64,000 nucleotides of DNA from Marsupella aquatica (GCA_973895155.1 OZ316896.1:18898754-18962753); one strand, 5' to 3'. Positions 728 to 45,372 are shown, numbered from the stretch's first letter. Notes: generated by a model not told the origin, from the letters alone. Program-made: numbers and translations.

Positions 728-1309
728 ATTAACTCCTCCCCCCCACAACGCAGCATCAAGCAACGACTCTGCTCCCAGCGCGCAGTCCACTTGGTGCTGA
801 CTTCTCTTCCCATTACAAGTCAACGGCTTCTCTCTCCAGCACGCACCTAAATCACTCTCGGGGGCCTCAGTATATAGAGACCCCCATATCACGCTCGACG
901 TTTTGGACCCTTGCACCCCTAACTTATTAAGTAAAATTTTTATTTCCCCTTCCCTATCATACTTAGAAGAATTCCAAATCCTAACATTTTGACCCCTAAA
1001 AATAGTTAAGTAAAGTTTTGTTGTGAATTAAACACCCCTTAGTAAGAAAAGAAAAGTTCATTCAAATGCGCACCTTATCTGGGTCTTTGTCAAGCTTATT
1101 TGAACCCTAATGTGCTCCTTAGGCATCCATATCTCAAGGAAAACTGATAGTATATAGTGTTGATGCTTCCACTAAGAATACCAATTCTAGTAGAAGCTTC
1201 AGCAATATACAGTATGAGTTATTCATATTGCAATCTGTTGTGCTTGTCTGATGTGAAAGGTAGGTATACCAAAAAGGAATTGAGTCAAGAATCTGAATGG
1301 TGAGTGTCC

Positions 1310-1369
1310 GTGGCAGAGGGGAATTGAACCCCTGATTGAGCAAGAAGCTCAAGTATCCAAATCTGCCAC
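1310..1369 (-). ncRNA. D-armless tRNA-like (mascRNA-like) 60-nt structure in the transposase 3' region
   Basis: Minus strand GTGGCAG-ATTTGGATAC-TTGAG CTTCTTG CTCAA-TC-AGGGG TTCAATT CCCCT-CTGCCAC: 7-bp acceptor stem, 5-bp stem with 7-nt loop, 5-bp T stem with canonical TTCRA loop. All pairs are Watson-Crick. Confidence 0.65.
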
Positions 1370-1441
1370 CCCCTAGCCTATCCCCCTAACCTATCCCCTA
1401 TACATACTAAAACCACTACCATGACTATTGATGCATGAAAA

Positions 1442-4400
1442 TCATTCAACTCTAGACATGGTCTCCAAATAAGTATCCAAAGCTTGTTTATCAACTCGAT
1501 CTATCACATACACTAAACCAATCCCTTGTTTCATGGTTAAAGTAACATTAGTCATCACCATTTCTATATCAATCCATTGTAAATCAGTTGTATCATAAGT
1601 GAATTCAACTTTGCTTGAGCTTGTTGGCTTATACCAATTGAACAAGAACTGACAAATACTCCCTACGTGTCCATGAGGAGGTGTTGGTCTATCAAGCAAA
1701 TCAATAGCAGATCTCACTCTAGTCCATTGTCCTTTAACTTTTTGTCTCATCATCATAATCCGACCAAGCCAAAATTCTTTCTTTGCTTGCACTACTGGCT
1801 CTTGAATCCTAGATTTACCTCTTCCCTTACCTTTCCCCTTTTTTGATCTTGTAGAAGGGCCTGCATCATTAGCACTTTCAAATGCTACTCCACAATCACT
1901 CCCAACATCAACAAAACAAGTCACAGTATTCGGATCACATTGTTTCCTCTTACCAAGATTATAGTATGCCACTTGCTTCACCCTTGTCAGCCTATCTTTA
2001 GACAAATGAGGGTTGCCCACTAGTTGACTCACCAAAGTTGATTTGTAAATTGTTCTGCCCTCATATGTAACTGTAGGCAAAACCTTCTTCTTTTCCTGTA
2101 GAGGGCTCTGAAAAGACTGTGTAAACTCAGCTACAACAGAAGACAACACATGACGAACCTCATGCCCCAAAGTATCTACCTCCACAGAATGAGGTTCTGG
2201 TATGTCTAACTCAACCCCATCCTGCAAAACATCATCAGGAATGGTTAGCTCATCTGTCAACCATGCATCAATTCGATTTAGATCTTCCTCAGGGTCTTCA
2301 AATTCATGAAAATCTCCTTCTGGACGAGGTCCAATTGGAGATATGTGCTCTACATGCTCTTCAGAATCATCAACAATAACTGCCTCTGCTATTATAGCTG
2401 AATCTGGCCATGTCTGAACTTCCACATCCCAAGGGTGAGTCCACCATCGCTTTCTTGCTGCTGGCAGATCACTTCTGGGAGACATTTGTAACCTTCTAAG
2501 AAACTCTCTTGCTTCTTCAAAACCTTCTTTCAAGGCTGCAACCACCATCTCATTAGTTTGCACTTTAGAGTAATCAAAAAGATTAGGTGCATCTTCACCT
2601 TCAAGTAAAGGATGAAGCTTGGCCCATACATGATCTTGCTTTTTATGTGATCGAGCTACTTTCAAGCCCTCTGGTCCACATTCTAATCCAGCAAGACGAT
2701 TTAACCCAACAGCACTGTCCAACAAGGAGCCAAAATCATAATTCCTCTCATGGCCACTCATTCCACCTACTTTGCTGAAAAATATCTCACAACAATCAGA
2801 ACCTAACTCATGAAATGGAATACACAAGTGAGAAAACTTATCACGAAATGCACATATAAGCAATACAATAAATTGACATGACATGTTAACATCATGAAAA
2901 GCCTGGATTGAAATCATATTTCTCTCTGTATGTGAAGCAACATTTCCACCTACAGCATGATCACCATACCTCAACCACAACCTCCACAATCGAAAGAACC
3001 AAGAAACTTTGCCTGCCAGCTTCACTCTAGTCCTCAGGTCATGTCTCTGGGAGTAGAAAATGTCAATATAGTCTGCACAAATCTGCAGATACAACTCTGT
3101 CCCCAAACTTCGTTCATGCAACAGATCAATTCTTCCATGCAGATCTGCTAAACAGTCACGCACCTTTTCTGATGCTATCCTTTGGGGACCAGCCCAGTTT
3201 TGACGGTCGGATCTGTTCACATCATCCCAATTCAATCCATGTTGATAGATTGGATAGTTATTGTACACATTACAAACATGAAATAGGGAAGCATGTTGGT
3301 CTCCAAGTGCCATTATTGAGGACACTCGATCTAGTGGGTTAATCAACTTTTTTCCATTGTGAGGCTGGTCTTGATCACCAAAACCATACAGGTCCCCATT
3401 AGGCAATATGGCAACTGAGTAAGGCCATCCTTCCCACCCTACAGAAAACCTAGGGTAAGACCCATTAGCTCCTCTGTAATCTTCTAACATCAATTTCCTG
3501 CGCCTTGCATCACCATCACTAGCATGCCCAAGCAAAGGACCTACAGAGTCTCTGCAATGTAGATCCCAAGATTCTTTCAATTGCTTCCAGTGCTCTCTAA
3601 CCCATTCTGCCTTGAACTTGTTACATGTTGATATAGCACAGAGGGCCAACTTTGGCATTCCAACATGCAATGGATTCACAATGACAACTCTAGCATACAT
3701 TCCCTTGTTAAAATCCTCAAATGTATTTACAATCTTGTTATAGCCATCCTCACCATCACCTACAAGAATTTCTAATCCAAATTCACAGGTATGCCCATCC
3801 TTATGGCCACAAAAACCAATCAGAGTGTCATATTTGGCCTCCCACCTGCAGAGAGCCAATTTCAAATGAAAACCAAGTCAATTTCAAAGAATTGGTAAAA
3901 CTATGCATCACAAATAATCTTCACCTTCAATTGCATCATTATGTGCTATAATATGCAAACATACCTTGGGCTTTCCTTGATCCTAGTTTCATCCTCTGCA
4001 AGCATGACAGGTACATGTCCTTCAATTCCCAACATCTCCTTTGCAGCAGACAGAATTCGAGCCACCTCCTTGAATGTTTTTGGCCTAATTCCAGCACGAA
4101 ATTGAACAAATTTTGCTCTATCTCGTTTTAGTGTCTTCAGGCTTGGCCCAGCTAAGTTCCTTGCAAAAACATGGGCCACCTGCCGGCCCCCATATTGAAA
4201 CATAGCCTGAGCTATGGCTTTTGTTTTCTGACTATAACGAAACCCCCTTGCACTTCTCTCCAAATTTCTACCTACATCTTTCAGAAAATCCCACAGACCT
4301 TCTTTTCCACCAAATGCACCATTCCTATGACCATTGACTATACTCCTTAGGAAAAGTCTCAAATCTTTTCTGTCTGCAGCTACTCCTAAGAGTTCTTGCA

Positions 4401-6021
4401 ATTTTCTCTTCCTAGTACTAAGGGCACACACTTTCTGAGTTTGTAATGCCAACAACCATCTCTCTTTTCTTCTCTTGACATTGAGACCATGCATCTGTGT
4501 GGTCAACTCTGGACGTGTCAAGTAGCGTGCATTCAAACCACCCTCTGTGCTTCTTTCCCCTCTCTTTGCTAAAGCCTCCGCTTCCCTGTGCACCCGCCCA
4601 CGAAAGTCATCTTCTAGTGTTATAGCATGACATCTACTGCAAGTTAAGTTCAGAAACCCCCCACCATACAAGGACAGCCTACAACACTGTTTATGCCTAA
4701 ATAGTCCTTCTATATGTACAATAGAATTTGTATTAGGATTGTAGACATCAACAGAGACTGTGGCATTTACATCCCATACATGTCCTCCATGCTGATCCTG
4801 TAAGATACCCTTCACAGCATACTTCACATTCTTCCACTCTACATATTCATCCCATATTCCCCAACAGAGCAAACTTAGGCCCATATCAATGTCTACAGAC
4901 CCACCTGTGCCAGAGCTGCTGCTTGCATTGGAAGCATCCTCCTTGAAGAATTTTAAAATTGAATTCTGTGAAGGATGTTGATCCCTCTCATCTGGCTTCC
5001 TTGGTCTGCCCCTCTTTCCAGATCTCAATGCAAGTTCAGCAGTATTCTCTCTGGCTTCAACTACATCCAGGTGACCTCGACTGACCAAGTGTGTCCTCAG
5101 GTTGTGATCCAAAGTCCCCTTCTTACAAACCAGATCCATGATTGCCCCACAAACCTTACACCTGACCTTATACAGGAACCACTTGTTTGCATTATTGGCT
5201 AAACCAGGCACAGGGGGCACATGAAATAGCTCATCATCACCTCCACACTCAGCATTCAAATTCTGTACTATCTCTAGGCCAGTTGCTATGGCCCCCTCAT
5301 AATCAAACTCAGGCTTTTGTGCAAGATCTGAGGGCTTCACTCCAATCATAGCAATTCCCCTTCTCCTACAGTAATTGTCTTTGTGTTTAGCAAAGGCAAG
5401 GTGCTTGGTCTTAAAATTGCTAAACAGATTAGCAATTGACTTCTTATCTTGGGAATTGTCTGCCCTCCCATAGATAACTCTGCACTCAAGACACTCTAAA
5501 TGGCCTCTCACATCCTGTCCTTCATCCCATGTACGAATTCTCCAATTATGATTTTTATAACCATTCTTTTGAACCCACTTCTCTAGTCTTATAAATTCAT
5601 CATTCCAAACTTTGACAGCTGCCTTAGACATAAGAATAGACTCAAAAGAAGCTCTCACAGGGGGAGCTTCTTGCAGTTGTTCACCTTGGGAAGAGTCCAC
5701 TGCAACTGATTGGGTGACAGCAACAGAAACCGATGGGAACTCTGTCCCAACAGTCGGCAAGGATCCAATTTGTTCAATGACAGCAACTTTCCCATCCAAT
5801 TCAGACAGCTCAGTCATTTTCTCACTCTTGACCTTCATTCGACCAGGAAGCCTATAATCCCAGAAATCAAAATCAAAATCAACCAAATCAGGAATTCGAT
5901 TTCGAAAATCAGCTAAAGTTTGACCTTCTTTGAACGCCAACACAGCTATTGGTTCTTCATCTTTCCCATCAGTCACCACATCCCTTTTTTTGTGCAATAG
6001 TTTTACAAACTGGGTAGCCAT
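1442..6021 (-). CDS. P-element/THAP9-like DDE transposase, ~1486 aa, two exons (6021-3965 and 3845-1442)
   Basis: The 709-aa and 807-aa ORFs join in frame (ESPR|WEAK) via a 119-nt GT-AG intron 3964-3846 (ccaag|gtatgt ... tgcag|gtgg). P-type motifs occur in the expected order: RYSxxTK...GPSLKTLKR, MLAEDET (D at 3991-3993), ASDGD (~3508-3520), DQPH (D/CxxH, ~3359-3370), GTELYL...DIFYS, GSDCCEIFFS (E at 2786-2788). Start taken as the first ATG (MATQ, 6021). Confidence 0.8.
3846..3964 (-). other. Spliceosomal intron (119 nt, phase 2) of the transposase
   Basis: GTATGT donor and TGCAG acceptor, AT-rich; splicing joins the two long ORFs in frame. Confidence 0.85.
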
Positions 6022-6246
6022 TTCAATGAATTGGTTCAAGTAGGTTAAAGTATCAAGGGTTCTAAATACATTCACAGATACATAATGGACCTGCCATACA
6101 CAATGAACCTGTCATACAACACAGTAAACAACACAATATGAAGCAAATTAGACATTGTTCAAAAAACCTTTTCAAAACCAGCTTTTAAGAAGACCCAAAC
6201 AAAAACTTGCTGGTCATTGTTCACATGTGATTAGTCTAGTGAAACT

Positions 6247-6912
6247 CTAAGAAGTATGAGGCTGCACAGGAACTAGTTCACCCTCAGCTATTCTATGCCT
6301 ATGACAATAAATGAAACGCCAGCCTTCCACATCCCAGTGGTCCCTGCCCTTCACACACCTCCTAAGGTGTTTCACTCCCCCAGTTGTCTCATCATGACAC
6401 CAACTTCGAGGGCACCTACGACACTGGACAAAGTCCTTAATCCCATCCTTGTACACTTTACAATACTCACAAAAGTGCCTTGGGCACATTAGGCTCTTTG
6501 GATTCCCTGGCTGAGACCTTTGAGACAGTGCTGCAACCATAAGCAACACCCTAAGGCAACCAGGGTGGTAATGAGAAAAGCAATCGGGGTGGGCACAATG
6601 GAGCACAAGAGATTCATTTTCTGTGGGGTGCTCAAATCTGCCAATGAGTCCACAAGCAAAGCATCTAGCTTTGCCAGCAGCACATAGTTGACAAACCCAT
6701 GGTGCCGTCCAGTCATTGTTTTCAGGCAGTGTGACAGGAGTGCAAGCAGGCCCATGTATACCTTCTCCACCAACAAAGTGAAAATGTCTACTACAAGGCC
6801 CATCACAAAATACCACATCATCTGTCTCATCACAAAAGAAACAACAAGGAGGATCCATGCGGTGGTGCTCCTTGTGGGAAAATATGTCAATCCTGGGCAC
6901 ATTAGAAGCCAT
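6247..6912 (-). CDS. Stand-alone EDM2/NSD-type tandem PHD-finger protein (~221 aa)
   Basis: CFFCD...FCDGPCSRHFH...WVCQLC...RCFACGLIG...CAHPDCFSHYHPGC...CPRHFCEYC...CRRCPRSW...IYCHRHRI...LVP follows the Cys/His spacing and terminal motif of the plant EDM2 PHD cassette as I recall it. ATG at 6912 lies after an acceptor at 6951. Confidence 0.75.
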   Translation of the reverse strand: MASNVPRIDIFSHKEHHRMDPPCCFFCDETDDVVFCDGPCSRHFHFVGGEGIHGPACTPVTLPENNDWTAPWVCQLCAAGKARCFACGLIGRFEHPTENESLVLHCAHPDCFSHYHPGCLRVLLMVAALSQRSQPGNPKSLMCPRHFCEYCKVYKDGIKDFVQCRRCPRSWCHDETTGGVKHLRRCVKGRDHWDVEGWRFIYCHRHRIAEGELVPVQPHTS

Positions 6913-7149
6913 CTCTGCTTGTTGGATAAGTTGCTGGATAGTGGATTTACCTATGCACACCACATTCATTAAACACTGAATAGCCAATTGAGGTTATTGG
7001 TGCAACTACATAGCATATATCATAAACAAAAGCATACCTTTTATTGATCTCTTATCTGACTAGCAAGAGCTGCAACAAATGGTGTATCTTGAGGCTTGCT
7101 CCTTCCACAAGGTTCACATATAAACCCTGGTATATTGCTGAAGCTTCTG

Positions 7150-7383
7150 AGATGCTTTGACTACATCGTAAGCCAATCCATCCTGCAAGAAGCTCAAGCC
7201 AATAAATCCCGCAAGCTCGAGTCAAGATCTAGAATAACAATTAAATCCAAGAAGACCTAACACAAAAGATGCTTCGACTACATCGTAATTAAGCCAATCC
7301 ATCTGCAAGAAGCTTGAGCCAATCAATCCTGCTAGAGTGAAGATCTATAATAACACATCCAAGAAGACCAAACACCAAAGATA
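7150..7383. repeat. Tandem duplication, ~117-bp unit x2
   Basis: agatgcttYgactacatcgtaa..gccaatccatc.tgcaagaagct at 7150 and 7267. Confidence 0.75.
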
Positions 7384-7945
7384 CAAGGAAGCGGGCAGGG
7401 AAGAACTTGAACAAACAGTAATCTTGAGAACTCTGGAAAATAGCGGCATGACATGGAAGTCTTACTATAGATCATGAAATGAACTTTCAATTCAACTTCA
7501 GCCAGAGCTAGGCCAGAGATAATATACCTTGGCAATTATTGGCTCCAAGCTATAGACGTGGAACAAATCCTCTTGTTGGATAAGCTGCACATTCAACATA
7601 GAGCCATTCAAATGAATGTTATTCAAGATTGCATTGAACAAATACCACTATGAACAATCACTGTTGAACAACTTACAGTGAGACTAATCCAATCAATTAA
7701 TCAGGATTGAAACAGGAGTTGTTGAGGACGCTGCTATGGCAAGGGCGCCTGCAATCCTACTTGCAAGAAGTAAAACACATAAGATAGACTAATCAGGCAT
7801 GCAAAATCTCCAAGCAAAGAAAAATGTGAAATTGGCAATGGAGTCGATCCCACTGACATTTTCTCACAATCAGTTCCCTTCCAGCATTTTCAATCCAAAT
7901 CTCATAGACAAACTGCAGGGAACTCAGAAGTGGACCATTGAGATA

Positions 7946-8056
7946 GACTACAACATTTTCTACCACAGACTACAACAGACAATCGGGCTGACATTGAAAG
8001 GACAACATTTTCTACCACAGACTACAATAGACAGTCGAGCTGACATTGAAAGGACC
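7946..8056. repeat. Tandem duplication, ~56-bp unit x2
   Basis: acaacatttYctaccacagactacaaYagacaRtcgRgctgacattgaaaggac twice. Confidence 0.8.
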
Positions 8057-8439
8057 ATGAGACAACTTTCAAAGTTGACACACACAAACAAGACCTGCCC
8101 TTACCTTCACCAAGAGCCAACATGCAAGCGCAAATAGAGAACTAAGGACCAAATTTGATCGACTGTGAAGTTGACAATCAGTTCCTTCACCATTTTTGGG
8201 CATGAGACAGACAACTTTCACCAGCATCAGCGCAGTATGACAAACGGTGCCCCCAACAAAGCTTGATCTACCAAGTAATCAAATCACAATGAATCAAAGG
8301 AAGCAATTGAAAACTAGCAGGACAATGAAAGAGAACTCCACCACAAGTACTTGCAGATCGAATGACAGTGCATCCTACCAAGGTCAATCAGCTCCTTGGT
8401 GCCCGGTCCAATCTCAACATGTACAGTCTTGATCGATCG

Positions 8440-8630
8440 ATTGACCTTCAGCTTGATTGATCAATCAGCTGCTCCAACACGGCCGCTACACCAAAGACGA
8501 CCCTTCAGTTGGATAGATCAGCTAGGAGCTCAAACACAACCGCAGCACCCAACGACGACCCTTCAGCTTGATATTTCAGCTGGTTGCTCAAACACAACCG
8601 TAGCACCCAGTGGCAACCTTCACCGCAGCA
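8440..8630. repeat. Diverged ~58-bp tandem repeat x3
   Basis: accttcagYt.gat...tcagct...gctcMaacac..ccgYa..ac recurs three times. Confidence 0.65.
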
Positions 8631-9318
8631 CCCAGCAGGACAGCCGCAGCCGTGACCTTGATCACACTCAGTCGCAACGCCCACGTTCATGCAATTGACT
8701 TCAGCCCCAACTTCAGCTACACCTCGATCATAGTTGCAATGCCCAGCTGAGCGCCCAACTTGAAGCAACACCCACAATTGCCCGATCACTTTCACTCCCA
8801 GAATGACTGCAGCTGATCAAAATCGCAGTAGATCACGCTCGCAGCTGAACAGACTTGCAGCTGAATAGACTCGCAGCTGCCACCTAAGTTTGATCAACAG
8901 AGCCACAATGCCCATCCCATGTGTAAGCATTTCCTTCAAAAAAGCTCGAAGCAATACCCAGAAATGCCCACCGTGTGCAGCAAGCTCAGTCATTGCCGCA
9001 GCACCCAACCTGAGTCTAAGCATTTCCTTCAAGAAAAGATCAAGACCCTGAGTGCAAACTTTGTCCACTATCTACGAAGGAAGCAACACGATTGAGGAAA
9101 CAACATGATTGAAGGCAGCAGCTTGCACAAGCAGCTTAAAACGAAGGAAGCATCACGATTGAAGGGAGCAACTCGATTGAAGGGAGCAGCATGAAAAGCA
9201 GGGAAGCACTCGACAAACAAAAAGGGATCAAGGAGGTCAGCCAAGAGGAAAAGTTCAAAGAAAGGGAGGAATACCTCAGTCTTCAGTTCAACCTGTGGAG
9301 TCACGCTTTTGCCCTTCG

Positions 9319-9392
9319 CCTTCAAGCTTGCCCCGGGCCTTCAAGCTTGCCCCGACCTTCAAGCTTGCCCCAACGTTCAACTTGCCTTCAAT
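9319..9392. repeat. 18-19-bp minisatellite (ccttcaagcttgcccc..) x3-4
   Basis: Directly visible tandem units. Confidence 0.75.
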
Positions 9393-10767
9393 CTCGCCCC
9401 TCTCCCTTTGCCTTCAAGCTCGCTCTCTGCCTAGCCTTTTCCAAGTGCTCCGTAAGGGATCGCAACACATTGATTGGGAGAACCTCAATCTCCCGAGTTG
9501 CCAAAGCCTCCCACTTAGTCGACCTCAATGAGCGCCCACCTCCTTCAACTGACCTTGCGCAACCACTGTCACCTCACATCCACCAACCTCAACGCAAGCT
9601 TGTGCAGCAGTCAATCGAACTCTCGTTCTAGCTCGCAACTTCCTTCACAGAATGCACTACTTTCCTTAAAAAAAACAGAGGCAGCACCCAACCTTCGATG
9701 CGCAACTCATCGTGACTCATCTTGTGCACTCTCGTGTGCACTTCCCTTTGCAAAGCTAAACCCTACCTCCCATCCAACGGTCCAACATTTGCCCTAAACG
9801 GCTCATATTTGCCTTTGCCCTGATCGTTGGATGCCCCTCCAAATGGATGGATAGATGGCCCTGCGAGATTCACCCCCTAAACACCCACAGCCATCTACAA
9901 AGAATTTGGCAGTTGCACCTGGGAGAATGGATGTCCCCGACACTTCCTACCCCAACCCTTCCCCTTCCCCCCTTGTGGTCCACCAAACCATCCACGTCCC
10001 GCCCAAAAAATTCAAATTTTGTCCCTTAGTGCTCGTCTTAAGGCCACCATGAAACCCCCATTAAGCACTATAACCTGTTTACATAAGGATGGGCCACGTG
10101 GACCAATTAAAAACAGACACGTGTTCCTCATATATGGCCAGGCCAAAAATGCCCTATCTTCAACTAACAACTTATATTGAAGAAGTGGTGTTTATAATAC
10201 CCCTAATATTCTTCTAAGTTGCAAGATATATTTTTCAACCCCTATAGTTCTTCAACAAAAATTCTAAAGTCTTCCGCAAAATTGAATTAAAAAACCCTAT
10301 ACTTTTTCGCGCGTGATGGGTCGGAAGGAAATAAGTGAGGACCCCGGGAAATCACTTCTGTCCCCAGCACGCAGCTCAATCAGTTTCAGGTGATCTCCGG
10401 TTCACTCTGCTGGTCGAAGCTCTCCTCACAGCGTCAACCACATTACTCTAAACGATCCTCACAGCCTCGCAGCCCAGCCCAGACTGCAGTGCAGCTTCAA
10501 TGCATCACTCTCAACGATCATAAATCCTCTCCTCTCGATCAGTGCAGCGCAGCTTTGACTCCTGGCAATCCACCACAATGTGTCAACATTGGGTTCTTGT
10601 TCAATGGCACCCAATGTTTGCTTGGGAAGTCCTGGGCCTGGCCTCATGTGCGTGTTGCAGTGGGGTCCTAACGGGTACACAAGAAGTTGTCCCTGCCCTC
10701 TCTCCCAACGTCAATTTTTGCCGTTCTCACCCAGATTTGGTGTGAGACATCTGTAGAGCCTGACAAG

Positions 10768-10880
10768 TTCTTACTAAACCCGCTCCAACCTACTATTGAG
10801 GTCCCACTGAGTCATTTTGGACTTTTGGGCACTGGTTAAGTCAGCAACTTTCATTAGTGGTCCCACCAAGCAAATCTCTC
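10768..10880 (-). repeat. Right terminal inverted repeat
   Basis: ttcttactaaacccgctccaac...ggtcccaccaagcaaatctctc is the reverse complement of the left repeat (~86% by eye). Confidence 0.85.
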
Positions 10881-33851: not shown

Positions 33852-34646
33852 CACTTTGGCAAACTTTTCTGACAAATATTGTAAGTATCATAACTATTAC
33901 TATGTCCATCATGGATCTAATACTGAAGGCTCTCAATGGGCCCTGCTTGTAAACCAAAAACTGTCCAAAAGGGTGCCTCGGCTGTTGCTAAAAGGGTGCC
34001 TAGAGCAAAAGCAACTTGACCACATAGACTAATGATGTGGGTGTTGACCATCCAAACGAGAGTGAAAATAAGTAAAGGTCTCTGGTAGGAACTGCAAGCA
34101 AAACAGTAAAATGTGCAATAGCAAAAAGAGTGTGACTCAAAGGACCTCCCTCATATGTACACTGCCAAATTATTATTATATATATATAATTCTTGTAGAG
34201 GTGTGATGACTACATAAAAAGAGAGTGTCACCTAAACATGTATAACACCTATGAATGGGTTGGATGTCTAAATCTGTGAAATGTGATTCCTTGTGAGAAT
34301 TTGTTGAACCCATTGAGACATCCATCTAAAGTACAATCAAATTACGGTGTGTATTGAGGGTTGGTCTAATACCCACAATGACTCTCCCTAAACTCCTATT
34401 TCAAAGTAATGTGGAGAAAGATGGAAGCTCATAAAGATACTATGACGAGGGTGTTTGAAACATATTAAGATGTAGAAAAGTTTCTCCAATAGAAGTCTTA
34501 GCCATGACTAGTAAGCAAGATGTACCCAAAACTGAGGTATTTGAGTTGACAAATGCCATGCTGGAATGTAATGGCAAAAGGAAATGGAAGTGTTAACCTA
34601 ATTGAGGGCAAAAGGAGATAGAAGTGTTAACCTCGTCTCCAGCAAT

Positions 34647-34802
34647 AGGGCATCTCAAACCTTGGAGTTGCAGGGAAAAAACGATGCCCGGACCTATCAG
34701 TTTCGATCACGGTTCAGCAATGTGTGGACACGGATTTTTGTGTCCGCCACTTTTTTCCCAGGAATCGGTCACTGTCAAGCAATGCCATGTTTGAGACACC
34801 CT
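34647..34802. mobile_element. Tourist-like MITE (PIF/Harbinger)
   Basis: TIRs agggcatctcaaac / gtttgagacaccct (12/14), perfect 3-bp AAT duplication on both sides, 156 bp. Confidence 0.65.
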
Positions 34803-35540
34803 AATGGTAACCTCCCGGGAACACCTCATACTGCCCTATACTTGAGACCCCCTAATATGTAAACAGAATGTGTAGAAGTTGAGTATCCTGACCGTTACGC
34901 TTCCCCTTTCAGTTGAGATCTGAGAGCCGTATTCCATCAGCCCTCGATGGTTGGCATCCACGATCACCCTCAAACCTCCGCCCTTCTTGGAAACAATCAC
35001 AGCCGTTCACGACTTCAGGGTGGCCCCCAAGTTCAACTTCGGGGTGGAAGGCTCATCGGGCCTTCCACTCTGCTTTGACGGCCCTCGTGATGACTGGTTC
35101 CGACGGTGAACGGGTGTTCTGACCGTCAATAGCCGTTTTGCAGTCGGTTGCAGTCGGTCATATCGATGACGACATTCGGGGTCATGACGGGTTTTCCTGA
35201 TGGAGCAGGCTGACATTACATGGCGCTAGCGCCCCTTTTTGCTGATCAATCTCTCAAACATGGAGAATACGTCTTGGAATTCCTGCCCGTTTGCGCATCA
35301 TCTTCGTCGCTGCGCTCAACTTGGATGCAAGGAAAAGTTTACCAAATTCACTAGCCCTCGGTGAGCTTCACTTTGTATTGGAAATTTTGTGAATTGCTTG
35401 TTTTCATTGGGAACCGATTCTTGTGCTAACCGTTGGGAATTGATGTCATTCGTCTTCTTTTCAGAGAAACTTGTGAGCATTCAACTCTGCGATCACACTC
35501 CTCCCCGAGCTCATCTGTCAAATCAAGCTTCTCAGGTATA

Positions 35541-36566
35541 ATGGCGACTCAATCTGCTAGTGGAAGTGTTCAATCTGGCTCAAATCAATCTCGAGAAGTT
35601 GGTGGAGCTGTGGCAAATGGGCCTCGTCCTTCTGCACCTGCTTCAGATCAACCCCCCACTAGGCAATGGAGACTACATGAGCTGCTTCTATTGATTGCAG
35701 CGAAGCGGATGGAACATGAGACTTCCTTGAATCACACATCGAGAGAGTGAATCAAGACTGCGGATCAAAAGTGGAGAGAAATTTTGGCAATCCTTGCAAG
35801 AGATAGTGTGACACGACAATCAATGCAGACCAAGAAACGTTGGGAGAAATTGGTAACAGACTTCAAGAAAGTGTATGATTATCAAAATCATGTAGGGAGT
35901 GGCCAATCTGACTACTATGAAATGGGCAGCGATGAAAGGAAGAACAGGAAAATTCCCGTGAATTTCACTCACGAATTATTTGATGCCATGGAGTGCTAGA
36001 TGGGCACTCATCGAGCGATCAATCCATCTCCAAACCAGGTGGTGGACAGTGGAGATGTCGAGGAAGAGCTCATGCAGGAGGCTGGGCAAACTGATATCGG
36101 GCATACTCAACATGCTATAAATACAAATTACAGAGAGGAAAATAATGTGGAGGTAAATTCTCCACTTCCTATTCCCGCTCCTGCAATGGAAACTTCAGCA
36201 GCAGGATTGCAGCAAGGAACGCCTCCATCAGGGGCAACAGGACTACACCAAAGATCGCCCCCATCAGGAACGCAATATACTGGGGTCAAGAAAAGTCGTC
36301 GAGATAAACTTGACGAGCAGTTCAAGAAGACTACAAGTTCCTTTTTGGATTTCCTTGGGAAAGACTCAGCGAGGAAGATTCTTGAGGATGAAACTAGTTG
36401 CACCTGGGACAAGGAAAAGCATGAAAGTCTTGTAGATCTTGACAAGAAAAAGCACGAAGAAATGATACGTCAACAGTCACAGATGGCTGTCGCTATGTCA
36501 AATGCCATCACAGGGATCTCCGACCCAATTCGATTCTTTGCCACAGAAGTAGCACGTAAGAAGTAG
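35541..36566 (+). pseudogene. Harbinger Myb/SANT (trihelix-like) DNA-binding protein with two in-frame stops
   Basis: Three ORF pieces in one frame: W..HE...LI.AK...KW.EI...R...Q.KKRWEKL..DFKKV.DY...YYEM...ERK...P.NF. Stops TGA 35748-35750 and TAG 35997-35999. Confidence 0.82.
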
Positions 36567-38486
36567 AATTGTATCTTGAAAACGGCTAGAACGCAAGCTA
36601 GTACATTGGATCAATTGTCTGTCGTCATTGCCCGTAGAACATTCCGCAACCGATCTGTTTTGTGAAATTCCTGCTTCAGTTGGTACTGTGCTAGCTTTTC
36701 CTCTCACATTTTTCCAACACCCTCTACATTTTGGGAATGCGACTGTTGCTCTTCGTCGTCATCGCGGCAACAACGGCTTTAGGACAGACTTGTGGTTTGA
36801 AGAAGCAAAACTACGGCACTGTTGTTATCGAGATGAAGACATACAGTAGGGCGAAGTTTTAAAGTAGGAAGGCGGTCAGCTGGAGTAATTCTCTGTTGCA
36901 AAAGAGAATGAAGTTTGGTTTGATTTGTAGATATCACTTTGAATGTGTCTCTCGCAGGGTGCTGTTTTATATCATTCGAACATTTATTGTCGCACAATTC
37001 TGTTCTTATGTGTATATACATGTAATTCCATCTATATCAATAAAAAAGGCTGCTCCCAATCACGAGCACTGTTGGCATCCTTCGTACTGTGGGCCCTGGT
37101 TAAATATGATTCCCGAGAGTATGTTGAACATTTGTGTATTTTCTATGTTGGAATGGTGATTGTCAACCCATTGTTAACATATTTCAACACAAACATAGCG
37201 ACAAGTATGTTTGTCATGTCGATCAATTAAGCTTAGAAAACTTGACAACCATAGCTCAGACAATTGGATAGGTTTACGAGTGGAAACGCAGCGGCTAGAA
37301 CGCAAGCTAGTACATTGGGTTGAATGTCTATGGTCATTGTCCGCAGAACATTCCTGCAGAGTTTAGCTGTAAACACTTGCCAAACAAAGATGAGCCAATT
37401 GTTCTTCAAGACGCCCAGGGACTCAAATGGGACACTAAGTATTTGGCCAGGAAGAATTCTCTGAGCGAGGGACGGAGTTAGTTTGCCATGGACCACCGTT
37501 TAGAGCCAGGCGATGCCCTTGTTTTTGAGTTAGTCAAGCCTCTGGGATCCACTTTGAATGCATTTTTTGCTTCAATTTGGAGACATTGGGAGTATTGGAT
37601 TAGCTGAGGATTTGGATCTCGGACAATTCTCGGTGTTTGTTTGATTGGACTTTCAAATTGGTTCGGTCGATGCAAGAATAGTGCTCTGAATCTGCAATTG
37701 ACAGGGCAGAGGAGTTCCTTGGCCGCCTACAAAGATTTCTTTGTTCCGAGCGCTTTGTGGATCTCGGGATTTCACAACTCAAAGTCATAGCAGGAGGAGT
37801 TGCTCATCAAGGTTGATGGATTGACATTGGATGCAAATTTAATTCAAGCTTTGACGAACGATCAGGAGGTGACCAGTACGTTTTTGGGAGCGCTTGTTGG
37901 CAGTGGACGCAAAACACATTATCTTTGCTCTCTTTGTCGCCGTGACAGTTGTGTTGAGCATGAGCCATCACGTTTTGGCTAGGCGTCTCCTTAAAGGTAC
38001 GCTGAGAAATAGTAGGAGTTCAACACATTGCAGTGTGTGAAGTACTTTGTTACCAGGGCATTATGGGCAGTAATGGTGAAGCCCTAGTTTTTGGAGCATT
38101 ACAGCCCACAATGTCCTGGAAACACGGGATCAGTATATACAAAGGACAAGTGTGCATATATATTCTTCTACCAAAAGAGTAACTTTTTACTTATGCTCAG
38201 AAAGAAGCTTCATCAAAGAACAATGCCAACCGGAGCACAAGGTTTGGACTTCTCATCTCTGTAGCGTACAACAGCTGCTCGATTATGATTGTGTAACTCT
38301 GTTGGACAAACATATCAACTTAGGATTCTTGTTCATGTTCTTGGCCCACACAATAATGCATCGTATAGACGATTAGACAGGCAACTAGATTTGTCACTAT
38401 AGCCAACCGTCGGCCAGCTCACAAAACAAATACTGTACATGTACATGGACTGTGGTTTGCGATGGCGTGTTACTGTTGGCGGCCAG

Positions 38487-39863
38487 TCATTTGCTCGATA
38501 AGTTGCTATTCTCTTGCTCTAGTGTATCCCACAGCTTCACCGGGACATCCCAGTTGTGACGTCCAGCGTATCCACCTGGATGGGGTGTAATACCCCGGAG
38601 CAACTCAGGACTGAAATGCTCTCCTCTCTCAATCAAATAGTTATGCAGAATGCAACAACAATAGATCATTGGACCAATTCTCTGCTTTTTTGGTTTCCAC
38701 AACATTAGACTGAGTATCCGCCACGTTCCTTTTAGCTGCCCAAACGCTCTTTCAACTGCCATCCTAGCTTGAGAGTGGCAGTGGTTCCACAAGTCATGCT
38801 CGTCTGATAATCCCCTTGCAAAAGGCACCATGAGCCAGGGATACAAGGGGTACCCTGCGTCCCCAACTATGTATTCCCTTAGAAGTGTCTCTCCATCTTG
38901 ACAATTATAATCCAAGCCCTGCAACTTGACTCTTCTATACTCAACGTCTCTGTAAAATGTAGACACTCTGAGCAAGCGTGTGTCCTGAATGCTCCCAGGC
39001 CAGCCAGCTACAACGTGCAAGAAGCTCAACTTCAAATCGACTATAGCCTGCATAGACACTGAGGTTTTCTTTTTAAAATCAAAATAATCCTGGCTGCGCT
39101 CTGATGCTGGCAACTCTACAGGAAAATGGGTGCCGTCAATGGCCCCACAGCAATTTGGGAATCCCCATCGATCAAGAAACTCACTTTTCACCTCATCCAG
39201 CTCTGCCCCAGTTGGCCACTTGATAAGTCTTCTCCCTCGTGCATTGATTGCCTGAATAAACTTCCAGGTTACTTTGATTGCGGTAGGACAAGAAACTCCA
39301 AACAGCTCCGAGATTCCAAGGAATTGGTCTCCAGTGCAGAGTCTCCTAAGCGCAATAGCTACCTGCCTCTCAACTGTGAGTCGTCTGTTTGGCAGTGTAC
39401 AAAACGCCAATGGTGGGTTTGTCAACATGTCGTCATGTACCATGTCACAAATTGCATAGAATGTCACTGGGCTGACCCGAAAGAACTCCTTAAATCTCTC
39501 AGGATCGTCATGAGGCACAAAGTCAATGAAAAGGTAAAACCACTGAATGCTCCTCGGCTTGATGTACCACCGGCACTCGATCTCTCGTTTCCTCATGAAG
39601 AAACTTTGAACAACCTGAATGAATAGGCAAACCTGCTTCCAGTTATCTTCATCATCTCGACATCTCTTTCTTGACTTGGAATTCTTCTGTGCACACAATC
39701 TTTGCAAGATTGTGCTCCTTCCAAGTTGATGTTGCCTGGTCATGAGGGATAGAAGAGAAACAGCAAGCGACACAGCCATTGTTGCATTCATGATTACAAA
39801 CGCTGTCATCGACTCCCAATTCTGAGAAATGTTGTCTTCTTGATCTGGACCTGGAAACTCCAT
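38487..39863 (-). CDS. PIF/Harbinger DDE transposase (HARBI1/ALP1-like, DDE_Tnp_4)
   Basis: FKEFFRVS..TF, GAIDGTH, GWPGSIQD, GDAGYPL.PWLMVPF, R..VERAFG.LKG.WRIL, CCILHN; 458-aa open frame. Confidence 0.93.
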   Translation of the reverse strand: MEFPGPDQEDNISQNWESMTAFVIMNATMAVSLAVSLLSLMTRQHQLGRSTILQRLCAQKNSKSRKRCRDDEDNWKQVCLFIQVVQSFFMRKREIECRWYIKPRSIQWFYLFIDFVPHDDPERFKEFFRVSPVTFYAICDMVHDDMLTNPPLAFCTLPNRRLTVERQVAIALRRLCTGDQFLGISELFGVSCPTAIKVTWKFIQAINARGRRLIKWPTGAELDEVKSEFLDRWGFPNCCGAIDGTHFPVELPASERSQDYFDFKKKTSVSMQAIVDLKLSFLHVVAGWPGSIQDTRLLRVSTFYRDVEYRRVKLQGLDYNCQDGETLLREYIVGDAGYPLYPWLMVPFARGLSDEHDLWNHCHSQARMAVERAFGQLKGTWRILSLMLWKPKKQRIGPMIYCCCILHNYLIERGEHFSPELLRGITPHPGGYAGRHNWDVPVKLWDTLEQENSNLSSK

Positions 39864-40504
39864 TTTGAATTGATTTCCAATTCACCTTCCGCACTTCCTC
39901 CAGCAATCCGAAGCAGCACAAAAAGCAACAGTGGTGGGGCCAGCTACAGGTCCAAGACAATGCACCAGAAGCATCTCATCAAGCAATCAAAAGCCTCCTA
40001 TGGTCATCGAAGCAACATGAAAACAGCAGCAGTGGGGGCAGCCTGCAGGTTACGATTTGCAGTAGATTTTACCAAAATAGATGTTTCAAGTTTTAGTAAA
40101 CCAAGAGAACAGTCTATGGAGGATTGAAAACTACGAGTGGCATCAGGCTGCTAGAGGACTATCCAAAGCAAGAACTCGAGGATCTGTACCAGTGACCTCC
40201 CTCAGTGTCTCAACCAGAAAAACCTGTATTGCCTATCGCGAAAAAATTTCTGCAATCCAAACAATAACAAATAATCTGCTATTTTAACTTCTATTGTAAA
40301 CTCATTACTGGAAACTCAGGTACTTGCAAAATAAGACTTGATGAGTCAAGTGCGAGCTTGCCTAATCACATTTTGGAGTTATGTTAGTTATAGGTCAACA
40401 GCAACTACTTCAGTACTTTAGCGTAGGTTTGCTTTGCAGTTTCTAAGTTTTTCTTTTGACTCTGAAAAAACCACATGCCAGAGCCGCGGCATTTGAGTCC
40501 CGGA

Positions 40505-40585
40505 TCTACCAGTAGTCTACCACTAGATTCTAGTAGATTCTAGTAGTGAATTCTAGTAGTGGATTCTAGTAGTCTACCACTAGAA
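40505..40585. repeat. Short tandem repeat (attctagtag / tctaccactag)
   Basis: Repeated 10-12-bp units. Confidence 0.6.
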
Positions 40586-41016
40586 TGCATATTTATCAAA
40601 AATGGAGACCAGACACTATACTTTACGGTTTCAATGCGCACCACATTCGGATTTTAGTTGCTTTGGAGTGCAGAGTAATGATGTCCCGGAGTCCTGGCTT
40701 GGGTAGCTCGCCTTCTGTAAATCCAAACATTCTTACCTGCTTAGCAAAGCTTCTTGAAGTGTGCCTACATTAGGCAAAGAATGAGAGTGGAAGAGATAAT
40801 GGGTAAGATACGGTAACCTCAATCTCGTAGTTATTTCTGTTCTCAACAGCAATGAGGCCAACTTCTACTTGCTCCAGATCAGCTCTCACTGCGGGTGGGC
40901 TGAAAATCTCATGGCCTGGTGACAATCTCATCGCATTGGGCAGATTTACTCATACCAGCCAAACAGTGTGAACAAAGCATGTCAATCAAGAGCACCATCA
41001 CGACCCCATTAACTTC

Positions 41017-41121
41017 TATAACACAGGAGCACGGCTGGTTCTAGACAAGCTCAATTTACATCTGGTGCCGCATACTAATGACGACCTCGACTGGCTTCAA
41101 ACTGCGGATCAATACCACGTT
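41017..41121 (+). pseudogene. Orphan fragment of a GH38 alpha-mannosidase N-terminal exon
   Basis: YNTGARLVLDKLNLHLVPHTNDDLDWLQTADQYHV matches the GH38 motif [23 protein letters not shown]; no other exons seen and a stop follows. Confidence 0.75.
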
Positions 41122-41719
41122 TTAAATGAGAGCAGCTGAATGGGAATCGATTGGTAGAGTCCGTCCGAGCCTATGTAATAACAGAATGAATAGATAAGCC
41201 TTCAGAGATTAACGAACCTTTTTACAAGTGGACTGAGAAACCTTCTCTGCTGTGTTTGCTTGAAGCACAGAGAGCTTCCGCTGAGGTCCAATCGAGCCCC
41301 AATCGAGCCCCAGTTACTTTTCTTCTGCTTCGTTGCCATAGAAGAGAAGTGGTGATCAAATAATTTGTATGGAGACTTCAGGAAACGCCAACTACACAGC
41401 GCTTTCAAGAGGGGAGAGAGTAAATCGAGTATTGAACTTACAAATTGTCCTCTGCGTTCCCCTTCTAATCTGTCCTCTGCATTCGATCGAGCTCCCGTTT
41501 TTCGTGCAGACGTCTTTTCGTTCAGATGCGGAATTTGCATTCGTTCAGACACAAAACCTTTGAGGCACATGGACTCCAGCGTTTCGGAAACTGGCACCAC
41601 TCGTTCCCCTTCGCACACCGTCGTTGAATACCCGGTTACAGTCAGTCGATAATTCACCCTCATCAAATGATGCGGGCACCATGGAATGAGACTCGGACTT
41701 GCCCTCAAACGCACTTTGG

Positions 41720-43713
41720 GGTGACGACAGTTTGAGGGTGAGAGCCGGGTCAAGGGCTGATGGAACAGTACTCGGAGCTGGTCCAATGTTCTTATCACGC
41801 TCAAAGCTATCCGTGTTCGATTACTGCAATTCCTGGACACTTTTGTACATTGAATGATGTGAGGTTTTCGGTGAAATTCAGCTAGAAGTGTGAGCCTAAT
41901 TCTGTTCTCTCCTCTGAATTCTAACCGGTAACTGGGATGCGAGTGTAGATGACAACTGCTATAAATTTCCCGGGAGTTCAGTCCGGTATGCAAAGATTTT
42001 TCAATTCAATCATTCACCTACATCGTGGACTTAAACATAGTGACGGAAGAAAACTCTGGCAGGATTGGCGCTTCTACCAATTCAGTGATTTTCTACCTAC
42101 CGAGAATCTAATTGTCAAGTTTGAAAAGGTGGGTTTGCACGACAGCTGTAGACATGTTTTCCGCTGGTTAAGAGTTGTATGTTTCAGGAAATACCTGTGT
42201 ACTTGAATTTATCGTCCAGTGTGTTCTTCGTGATAAGTAGACCCAGGCCAGCACGAGGAAAATGTTCGAGACAATCATCGGAACAGAGGAGCCAGTGCAA
42301 TCCTGAGGATCTTACGGCCCACAGTTATGGGGCATGATCTTCTGAGTCCACAAGACTTGTGATCTTAAGTCAAGCTCGACCGAGTGGCAAAGTAAGTAAG
42401 CCATGCTTTCGCTTCCACTTACAAATGTCAAATGAATAGGGATGTCCACCTCTCTGAACGCCCTTTTGAGAAGCATTGTGCACGGACTCAAGTAGAATGG
42501 AGAATTCCTGTCCAAATCACGTTTGTATTTCACACGATTGTACAACGTGCAGTTTTATTTTAGGGCCCTGAGTGGAGCCAAAGAATGGTTCGACAAAATC
42601 CTACATAAAAATGTTGCCATCTCAATATGGAGGTGGATGGACGAGTTTCATCGGGGCGTGCCATGTCCTAATAGTGACACTGAAGATTTAAAATCTTCCC
42701 TGCTTGAATTTGCTAGTCAGAGCTCTGCTGCGCTTAGTCAACCGATTACCGAGTCACACATCTAGTATGCGGTAATAAATCTAATGAACTACGCGCTGTC
42801 TCCATGTGACTCCGCTAAGTGATGTCAAAGGACGCATTGATCAATTCCAAATGCTTTGGTGCATATTCACTTATTCTCCCTAGTGGTTTCCCTCGTGTGG
42901 AAAGCTCAGCTCTAGCGTCTCATGAGTCCGTAACTTAGCTGCAATGTGGTTATAGTGCCGCAAGTGGATGGAAATGTCTCAGTTCTCACATAATAATGTT
43001 TACAAGCGCTTCAAAACAAGAAGCGACAGCACGGCGAATGCCATCGGTGCTGCAATTGAGGGCAGCAAGCTACCAGCGCTGCCAGTCGATGCAGGGCTAG
43101 GTGCAGGGGCCAAATCTTGCGCAAGTAGAGACCGGCTCGCTGCTGATACGAAGCCTTGACTCTCCACAATCACCACCAATACCATCACCATGACCACGAC
43201 GCTGCTCCTCATCAAGGAACTCAGGCTCAAAGCCATTGCGATACGCTCTTCCACGAAGTCTGCAAACACCAATTGGAATCGGAAACTTAAAACGCTCCTC
43301 CTGCAGATCGATTCCTAGCCTCTTTCTGTGCTTTTAGTGGCGAATCGTTCTCAGTAATCGATCAGTACCTGTTGAATTTGTTGCGTCGAAATTAAACGAA
43401 AACACAGGAATGATTGATGTAAGATGAAGGGCCCCATTTTGGGTTTTATACTGGGATTGCACTGCGCGCGGGAACAAGCACCATCATTCGGGAGGATGTC
43501 TGAGACCCAACGACCGCGTCATGTGGGGCCGCGTAGACGGCTGAATGCGTGCTCGGACTGATTGAAACAAGGCATGTTCAATGAATGGGGTCCGCCAGCC
43601 AGTAACTGTTGACGGGATTGTGGAGACAAGTCATACTCATTTTTGCTTGTACTGTTGGTCTCCGCATTGGAAACCTGGTGGAAGTCATGGAAGTCTTCCT
43701 GTACTCGTGTCAT
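41720..43713 (-). repeat. Left arm of ~2-kb inverted duplication (subtype B unit); direct paralog at ~29430-31480
   Basis: Gene, promoter and ~1.2 kb of 3' flank align in reverse complement to 45375-47320. Confidence 0.8.
43000..43236 (-). CDS. AG peptide, subtype B
   Basis: MALSLSS...SRSLLAQDLAPAPSPASTGS...LKRL, 78 aa. Confidence 0.88.
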   Translation of the reverse strand: MALSLSSLMRSSVVVMVMVLVVIVESQGFVSAASRSLLAQDLAPAPSPASTGSAGSLLPSIAAPMAFAVLSLLVLKRL

Positions 43714-45372
43714 TGTAACCGAGGATCAAGAGGGTAGTAAAAATTTTAGTTCCAGCAGGGCCAGGTCAAAACAAGACTAACTCTAAAATTATCTTTTTAA
43801 GCTTAGTTGGGACAATTAGCTCAGAGGGCATGCAAGTTGCTTGTCTATATTATGTATAGGGTAATGCAGGTCTGGACGCACGTTACTAGGCTGTAACCCT
43901 GCGTCCGGAATATGAAAAGAAACTGACCGGCGGCAGTCGGGAAGCTTCTTTGAATATTCCGGGAGCAGGTTACAGCCTATAACCCTAGCCCTGCCTTGCA
44001 TTAGCGTACTTAACTCCTGCCCGGAAAGAGGTTACCAGCTCAACTTTTCAGGACACCAGATTATGACTATAGGAGGCCCTTGTAGAAATGGTTACACACA
44101 GGTAACCTCTTCTCACACAGGTAACCTCTTCACCTCTTCTCACACAGGTAACCTCTTCTCCTGACATGATTTATGTCCAAGGTCTAATCCATGAAGTTGA
44201 AGCTCTACTGCTCTCCCTCTGGCCTGGTGTTGAACAGATTTAAAGTCAGATTTAAATACTCTGGACAGCATGTACCTGTCATGTACCTGTCATGTACCTT
44301 TACTCGAAGCCAGCATTTCTCGTACTGCTAGAAATTTTTGAGTGGCAAATATTGTCCATATTCCAAAAGTCAATGCTAAAAATACACCTCCTTTCTTCCA
44401 TTAGGTTAGGGTTCAGGGCAGCGTATTTTTTTAAGGATTTCACTTTTTAGTAGGAGTGGCGAATGTAAAGTGTGTGAGGGAGAAGATGCTCAGAAAATTC
44501 CTTATTCAATTATTTTCCTGACCGTCAGATCTCCCTAGATTTAAGGCTTACCGTTAGATTCTGGCTAATGGGGCCTGGGATTTCAGATTTAAGGCTTACC
44601 GTTAGATTCTGGCTAATGGGGCCTGGGATTAGGTGAAACACTGGCTACTGAGCCAGCAAAATAGTAGCTAATTTTTGCCAAAAGTGTTAGATATTGCTCT
44701 ACTCTTGTGACTTATGAGCTAATTATAATTAGGCTAACTCGGGTTAGGACTTAGCTAATGTTAGCGGTAGTGCTGTTATGCATATAGCTAGGGTTGGTGC
44801 CAGACCCTGGTGAAACTTAAGTTCATTGTTACGAAGTTAGTTGAGAGATAGGGAGAGCTTGTGCTGTGGATGCTTGGTATGGCCGGTCGACCTAGAGTGC
44901 AGTAAAACTCTTGTGTGGTCCCGTGGACGTAGCCTCATGTGGAGGTGAACCACGTATCTCTCTGTGTCGACTCTTGTGTGTTGGATGGTTCATGGGCTTG
45001 CCGTTACAAATGTCGTCTATGCTCAACAAAAAGTGGCGAAGGATTTTTTGGGAGGTGGAATCTAGCTAATTTTCGCCACTAAAAAAAACACTGGTTCAGG
45101 CTCCACCTAGCCCCCTCATTAGCTAGCATCAAAGTCTTTATCCTTAGATCTAAATCCAATTAATATGGTCTCCCATATTTGATATTTCTCCCCTCATAAG
45201 CGGGTAGACATACTTTCACCCTATACTTAGTAAAGGTCACCCTATACTTAGTAAAGGTCACAGTACGCCCTAATACTATACAACTTCTTCATCACATTTT
45301 GTGATGTTGGCACACACACTGGCAAAGAAAGAAAAAACTTAGAAATTACGCTCTAACACCGCCCTGGTTACA
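43714..45372 (+). mobile_element. Solo-LTR-like insertion between head-to-head AG peptide promoters
   Basis: TGTAACC...GGTTACA ends; LTR U5-like cccgtggacgtagcc...gaaccacgta (~44920-44956) followed by an internal GTTACA at 45008; internal micro-duplications; no clean 5-bp TSD and no coding sequence. Confidence 0.5.

Follow-up and report, generated by a model that had tools for sequence, protein, structure and literature searches.

A 9.5-kb P-type DNA transposon in the land plant Marsupella aquatica with a second gene derived from the EDM2 family of PHD proteins

We analyzed a 64,000-nucleotide stretch of DNA from Marsupella aquatica (GCA_973895155.1 OZ316896.1:18898754-18962753), referred to here as the window, with positions counted from its first letter. 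At 857-10348 it contains a 9.5-kb P-type element with two genes on the minus strand, i.e., a transposase and, upstream of it, a separate gene for a cassette of PHD fingers of the EDM2 family. A sequence-only reading of the window had placed both open reading frames (ORFs) inside one pair of terminal inverted repeats (TIRs). Both do fall within one pair of ends, at 857 and 10348 and bordered by a target-site duplication (TSD), but the element measures 9.5 kb rather than the 5.5 kb first supposed. Its features are as follows.

849-856: left copy of the TSD, 8 bp, the same 8-mer as at 10349-10356.
857-897, plus strand: left TIR, imperfect, starting CTCGGGG.
1192-1210, plus strand: left arm of a perfect 19-nucleotide (nt) internal inverted repeat of subterminal type, 335 nt from the left end.
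1310-1369, minus strand: tRNA-like stretch in the transposase 3' region or left arm, possibly a remnant of a short interspersed nuclear element, but weak (Rfam mascRNA-menRNA, E 0.21, below the gathering score).
1442-3845, minus strand: transposase exon 2, with D797, D846-x-x-H849 and E1040 and a C-terminal beta-barrel that is BAH-like at weak Z.
3846-3964, minus strand: predicted intron of 119 nt, GT-AG, phase 2, which restores the frame; homologues are collinear.
3965-6024, minus strand: transposase exon 1, with N-terminal Cys/His motifs, no THAP match, and the first catalytic residue, D678.
6103-6123, minus strand: conserved spacer block reading as a 3' splice site (AG at 6110-6109), the predicted acceptor in the 5' untranslated region of the transposase mRNA.
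6247-6912, minus strand: accessory gene for a stand-alone EDM2-family PHD cassette of 221 residues and 2.5 fingers, intact from the ATG at 6912 to the stop at 6249-6247.
6913-10307: upstream arm, with short tandem repeats and no ORF that matches a protein family; presumed promoter and first exon.
7130-7148, minus strand: right arm of the perfect 19-nt repeat; it lies 3200 nt from the right end, and diverged copies retain it.
10308-10348, minus strand: right TIR, starting CCCGGGG on that strand and complementary to the left end.
10349-10356: right copy of the TSD, 8 bp, the same 8-mer as at 849-856.

The ends were found by comparing the end zone with a neighboring small repeat, a miniature inverted-repeat transposable element (MITE) at 122-427. 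The element begins with CTC and finishes with GGG, its TIRs are imperfect (complementary at 11 of the first 13 bases and at 25 of 41), and the TSD is perfect. Removal of the element in silico rejoined a short tandem repeat unit, and contigs of the single-copy flank stop at 886-905. Two of ten real inward-facing pairs of the end motif had at least 7 of 8 flanking letters alike, compared with none in 60 resampled windows; as the motif was derived from the element's own ends, this control tests the flank match and not the motif. The perfect 19-nt repeat was also considered as the TIR and rejected. It has no target duplication, copy-shared sequence continues past both of its arms, and one diverged contig matches for at least 64 nt on either side of a joint at 7130. 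Lacking a TSD and overrun by copies, this asymmetrically placed repeat is instead the counterpart of the inverted repeats found inside P elements, whose target duplications are likewise 8 bp (PMC7776569). A single contig with 2 differences spans 6962-8300 and then continues for about 1965 letters. Other contigs branch away at 1354, within the tRNA-like stretch, and outside the ends the element is flanked by an inverted pair of short repeats, 85% alike, at 614-730 and 10765-10880.

The transposase has its first ATG at 6024, at a position matching the start of Riccia homologues and 222 nt after the stop codon of the co-oriented PHD gene (the 225 bp given earlier counted the stop). It had been described as intact; it is open, yet split by the predicted intron, and the spliced form has two exons, 1487 residues and one terminal stop. 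Two intron-less homologues (P0012 and P0018) are continuous across the splice junction, and contigs from all four runs diverge over 3857-3944, inside the predicted intron. Searches found 51 transposase relatives among 5721 candidates; 21 of the 51 carry an organism name, and all of these are from Riccia. Taken with the liverwort host genes described below, these names by themselves point to a bryophyte host.

Assignment to the P superfamily rests on a model of P0012, a one-piece homologue 42% identical to exon 2 (pLDDT 76). The model matched Drosophila P transposase (6p5a) at Z 25.9, with a root-mean-square deviation of 4.0 over 415 aligned residues and 8.7 for the next entry, and Foldseek returned the same protein at E 2e-9; the fold is thus that of the homologue's model, with the element's own protein present in the alignment used. 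Residues D678, D797, D846-x-x-H849 and E1040, assigned by motif rather than superposition, fit the DDE plus D(2)H signature of P-type transposases (PMC3698922). In 28 sequences E1040 is invariant, and D797, D846 and H849 are each kept in at least 90%. With the P-type RNase H fold found on the homologue's model, together with the 8-bp TSD and this signature, the earlier identification of a P-like DNA transposon is upheld. Sequence methods were less informative: the transposase, exon 1 included, gave no Pfam match and no THAP domain, PDB sequence searches with single proteins and with the transposase profile gave nothing useful, and TNP-like_RNaseH_N was found in 4 of the 51 relatives, always below threshold. 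The C-terminal barrel (window 1442-1950; P0012 residues 913-1063) matched BAH and chromo-barrel structures at Z 5.5-6.4, a range where such matches are common. At least 11 close homologues have it and two distant relatives show it weakly; we treat its resemblance to BAH domains as a lead only.

The PHD gene is the intact, cassette-only ORF of about 221 codons that had been proposed, with a match to Pfam PHD_NSD above the cut-off (E 9e-9). Its product has no RFD, acidic or methyltransferase-like part, no match to a DNA-binding or effector domain, and no VANC- or MAIN-type Pfam match. Among 43 candidates we found two relatives of like length, 55-56% identical, that have start, length, end and zinc ligands in common with it. 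Sixteen longer matches, from 1680 candidates, all carry PHD_NSD at 24-33% identity, and two are named EDM2 or EDM2-like. Within the cassette, the three element-type proteins all retain 23 of the 25 Cys/His columns of host cassettes (a 26th falls in the unaligned tail), which agrees with the EDM2-like character first noted, and the conserved C-terminal tail of host cassettes is absent.

Finger 1 retains D20, D37 and W72 and has a His where K4me3 readers have a Trp. We take its acidic residues and Trp to be the signature of binders of H3 unmethylated at K4, the K4me3 cage being absent. The nearest PDB neighbors of the cassette profile are NSD PHD cassettes (E 4e-26), followed among single fingers by AIRE, CHD4 and TRIM66/24/33, whose fingers read K4-unmethylated H3. 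AlphaFold, given a three-sequence alignment, reached a pLDDT of 31 for the PHD protein. No relatives of this protein were found in metagenome contigs by single-sequence or alignment searches; in viral contigs it matched one locus over 32 residues and the transposase had no relative, and no relative turned up in prokaryote genomes. A further set of short stand-alone EDM2-type cassettes (P0172, P0198, P0202, P0208, P0212, P0113 and P0089), several of which share with the element's protein an F-x-x-x-E motif before finger 1, may possibly be cargo of other transposons.

Pieces of the PHD ORF occur in contigs of four organism labels from four studies, one being possibly the window's own source. A 622-nt contig of organism D contains the 3' part of the PHD ORF (26 differences in 170, 85%) and the start of the transposase (17 in 160, 89%) with an unlike spacer between them, and one from organism B has a joint between 6100 and 6246, so that the linkage of the two genes is found in other copies. 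Run X12 (organism E) holds a 33-nt piece of the PHD ORF only. Among well-supported variants in the PHD gene, 17 of 31 were silent, against an expected fraction of 0.21-0.28 (p 4e-5 to 1e-3; rough omega, i.e., dN/dS, 0.22-0.31), as were 29 of 40 transposase variants (omega 0.11-0.15), and none of 14 PHD replacements fell at a Cys/His ligand. Linkage in diverged copies, the silent excess and the intact relatives argue that the PHD ORF is selected cargo rather than a host gene or a neutral capture. The outcomes that the sequence-only reading had named as fatal to its proposal, i.e., absence from other copies, neutral evolution, or a single-copy host gene beyond the element's limits, were not encountered.

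In runs X1, X2 and X4, 28 extra letters and a repeat of 9 bases stand at 6962-6970, so the window copy has lost 37 nt immediately upstream of the PHD gene, close to its predicted acceptor. Summed contig depths are not copy numbers.

Where did the cassette come from? In a profile search (best 150 of 249), the top matches after the element-type sequences were six proteins of Riccia, Marchantia and Calypogeia (P0075-P0080) in which the cassette is C-terminal, 1-34 residues from the end. They share with the element's protein a D(D/P)PPxC start and a VQCRRCPxxW motif, and a profile made from them scores that protein at 120-131 bits, compared with 94-101 for a non-seed EDM2 profile and 74-95 for an angiosperm one (six sequences each). 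These paralogues, which include Marchantia MPTK1_1g03210 and 4g03050, constitute a liverwort EDM2 paralogue family on which we found no study, most subscription journals lying outside the literature searched. A 42-row tree placed the element clade among them (91/89). A grouping with canonical EDM2 is not rejected (p-AU 0.32 in the approximately unbiased test), and pairwise scores overlap. A FastTree analysis of 152 of 164 cassettes (12 under 150 residues were dropped), in which the element clade joined other long branches, was replaced by the 42-row tree. The donor was probably a paralogue without a methyltransferase-like tail from the start, a source that is favored rather than shown. The claim that an EDM2-family reader was captured stands, but the supposed loss of a C-terminal methyltransferase-like part is not needed, because the host paralogues nearest in profile score and shared motifs already end at the cassette. 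On sequence grounds we file the element's protein as EDM2-family-derived and not as EDM2: it has the 2.5 atypical fingers that define EDM2 (PMC7529245) and lacks the acidic, ELP and RFD parts.

Taken jointly, the ends, the TSD, the two ORFs, the P-type fold of a close homologue, the linkage in diverged copies, the purifying selection and the stand-alone state of the cassette make us highly confident of this structure. We read it as a two-gene transposon of the P superfamily, presumably moving by cut-and-paste, whose second gene came from a host EDM2-family gene and was retained by selection. Our leading proposal for the function of that gene, which we hold tentatively and at a little under even odds, is that its product is a partner of the transposase and reads the H3 tails of silent chromatin. 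The PHD protein would act by contacting the element's own transposase, its cassette is predicted to bind H3 tails unmethylated at K4, and the transposase, when excising or inserting the element, would in this way be tethered to chromatin that is silent and poor in genes. With neither a DNA-binding nor an effector domain, the protein could favor its own family above other transposons only by way of a partner specific to that family, and the partner that the element carries is the transposase. The RAG2-like Kelch-PHD proteins of Transib-type transposons provide a separate precedent for such a role. In the 64-kb window around this insertion, a single case, there was no recognizable host gene among the long ORFs. 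A complex prediction for the PHD protein with the last 227 residues of the transposase, in which alignments were unused, gave a score of 0.00 and speaks for neither side.

Several points weigh against this proposal or the selection argument beneath it. The variants came from the best 40 of 240 rows and the best 40 of 695 (3 non-coding ones were dropped), which makes them the best supported rather than a random sample, and variants sharing a contig are not independent. The PHD ORF is frameshifted in some contigs at 6376, 6453 and 6821, and the only contig of organism C over 6376 is among the frameshifted ones. Riccia accounts for 21 of the 51 transposase matches yet yielded no PHD protein of the element type; many relatives may therefore transpose without a PHD gene. 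The argument from family specificity is theory, and a general decoy could also be selected. Finally, the cassette lies on a very long branch (2.7 substitutions per site), has lost both the Cys that host cassettes have at position 175 and the acidic stretch ahead of finger 1, and shows a changed ligand set (H182, invariant in element-type proteins, may replace C175 as a ligand). With these changes EDM2 specificity cannot be assumed, and the cassette's target may not be a histone.

Next in standing, though in our estimate unlikely, is protection of the element's own transcript, the lead of the sequence-only reading: the cassette would bind H3K9me2 on the element and recruit host factors of the ASI1/AIPP1 type, allowing the long transposase mRNA to be completed within heterochromatin. 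H3K9me2 is a ligand of EDM2 itself, which acts together with ASI1 and AIPP1 to suppress proximal polyadenylation and promote full-length transcripts (PMC7529245, PMC7472560), and VANC likewise comes from a captured chromatin regulator (PMC13547354). The ratio of observed to expected CpG is 0.16-0.20 in both genes (1442-6912) and 0.69-0.72 in the rest of the window, as expected after a long stay in methylated chromatin; this depletion fits such residence and makes no choice among the functional readings. The C-terminal domain of the transposase is BAH-like, as in ASI1, although its Z of about 6 is commonly met. However, nothing of EDM2 beyond the cassette is present, an uncharacterized paralogue is a likelier donor than EDM2 itself, and the protein has no DNA-binding part to confer family specificity.

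We consider it distinctly unlikely that the cassette has been repurposed as a cofactor of the transposase that binds a non-histone protein or nucleic acid, acting as activator or repressor in the manner of TnpA or the P repressor. The long branch, the altered ligands with the new His182 and the loss of the host C-terminal tail would suit this, as would closest solved relatives that are NSD PHD cassettes; on the other side, finger 1, the histone-binding type, is the best kept. A decoy that weakens silencing broadly, by vying with readers or silencing enzymes of the host over marked H3 tails or over the host paralogue's partners, is improbable: the reader-only architecture and its conserved stand-alone state are what a decoy might look like, but in theory the benefit would go to all transposons, and a protein 28-33% identical to host cassettes is less likely to reproduce their contacts faithfully. 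That the PHD ORF is a neutral Pack-type passenger, or a host gene beside a transposon, is very improbable; broken copies exist and most transposase relatives have no known PHD neighbor, but the ORF lies inside the TSD of an element with an intact transposase, is linked to the transposase gene in diverged copies, shows an excess of silent changes and has intact relatives at 55% identity.

The spacer bears on how the two genes would be expressed. Its 21-nt block is kept in the diverged contig of organism D (joints 6023-6103 and 6123-6242), and an acceptor-like site similar to it, near 6951, precedes the PHD start by about 40 nt. This arrangement suggests that both genes may be expressed from one promoter through a choice between two alternative acceptors. 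The same block, being in frame with an open stretch before the transposase ATG, could instead join an upstream PHD exon to the transposase as a fusion protein, the donor being a candidate G|GT around codon 213, where homologue conservation stops; this too we regard as having very little chance of being right, as the donor is in phase 1 and the acceptor in phase 0, the frame would be lost through a 4-nt deletion that contigs from each of the four runs have at 6040, conservation continues beyond the PHD stop to 6242-6246, and no fused form exists among 172 cassette proteins (0 match the transposase) and 53 transposases (0 carry a cassette).

To return to the partner proposal, we also entertain a bolder version, which is possible but on balance unlikely: a plant P-type transposon may have independently built a two-part machine like RAG1/RAG2, in which an EDM2-family PHD protein docks on the transposase, perhaps with the BAH-like barrel as a split BAH-PHD reader. 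It would read the silencing marks of the host to transpose from and into heterochromatin and would drive a very abundant MITE family, and other stand-alone cassettes may represent the same invention in further elements. The RAG transposons, with a RAG1-like transposase and a Kelch-PHD RAG2-like gene, share with our element a separate PHD-bearing accessory gene (PMC4411706). They differ in belonging to Transib rather than P, in their animal hosts, and in having a single PHD finger on a propeller. The RAG2 finger reads H3K4me3 (PMC5175335), which finger 1 of the element is not predicted to do.

With the P superfamily (Drosophila P, 1360 and Galileo; zebrafish THAP9 elements) the element shares the fold, the DDE plus D(2)H motif and the 8-bp TSD (PMC7776569, PMC3698922). 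Also in common are terminal and internal inverted repeats, a spliced transposase and an associated MITE. It differs in its land-plant host, its 9.5-kb length, a 1487-residue transposase with an extra C-terminal barrel and no THAP match, imperfect ends of the form C(T/C)CGGGG, and the second, separate gene. Canonical animal P/THAP9 elements have termini of CA...TG. With other ends and no THAP domain, the element is not placed in that family on sequence criteria; THAP domains are restricted to animals (PMC7776569).

EDM2 and the liverwort paralogues (MPTK1_1g03210, R1sor_003797) share the 2.5-finger cassette with the element's protein, at 28-33% identity and with 23 of 25 Cys/His columns, but the latter is a 221-residue, transposon-borne, cassette-only protein that has evolved very fast. 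VANC proteins target DNA motifs. Like the PHD gene, VANC of VANDAL/MuDR elements is an accessory gene of a plant transposon that derives from a host chromatin regulator (MAIN) and is under weaker selection than the transposase (PMC13547354). It induces hypomethylation of its elements (PMC6446971), and the PHD protein is unrelated to it and has no DNA-binding match. Rehavkus elements also encode a PHD finger (PMC6446971), but within a Mutator-like transposase of animals and not as a separate gene. As the sequence-only reading had supposed, no P-type element with EDM2-type PHD cargo was found in the literature searched; Repbase Reports, most subscription journals and the supplements of bryophyte genome papers, whose repeat tables may already list P-type families, lay outside that search. 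The structure is well supported and, as far as searched, previously undescribed.

Other features of the window lie outside the element. The nearest is the repeat with which the ends were compared.

122-427: separate MITE of 306 bp, whose ends are of the element's type and whose target duplication agrees at 7 of 8 letters.

The MITE ends align to those of the element with scores of 58 and 105, against maxima of 38 and 46 in 100 shuffles, and its summed contig depth is extremely high in all four runs; it was likely mobilized by the element's P-type family. At 38487-39881, on the minus strand, is an intact 464-codon ORF for a transposase of the PIF/Harbinger type (Pfam DDE_Tnp_4, E 1.5e-33), with no clear terminal repeat within 34000-44000. 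About ten copies of a 1-2 kb repeat, 70-85% alike, in both orientations and with a better-kept 240-bp core, occupy 24800-57100; the long ORFs tested in that region gave no Pfam match. Imperfect palindromes of 80-100 nt lie at 43882-43983 and 52206-52287.

P-type elements are known as one-gene transposons of animals, and it was unexpected to meet one in a land plant that is intact, seems to have amplified recently and has a second gene under selection. The finding points to an uncharacterized family of liverwort EDM2 paralogues and offers a minimal natural EDM2 cassette for binding studies. If the cassette does read histones for the transposase, it would be a separable module for the choice of chromatin by a DNA transposon and for the mobilization of silenced copies, and it would represent a second origin of the RAG-type design of a transposase plus a PHD protein.

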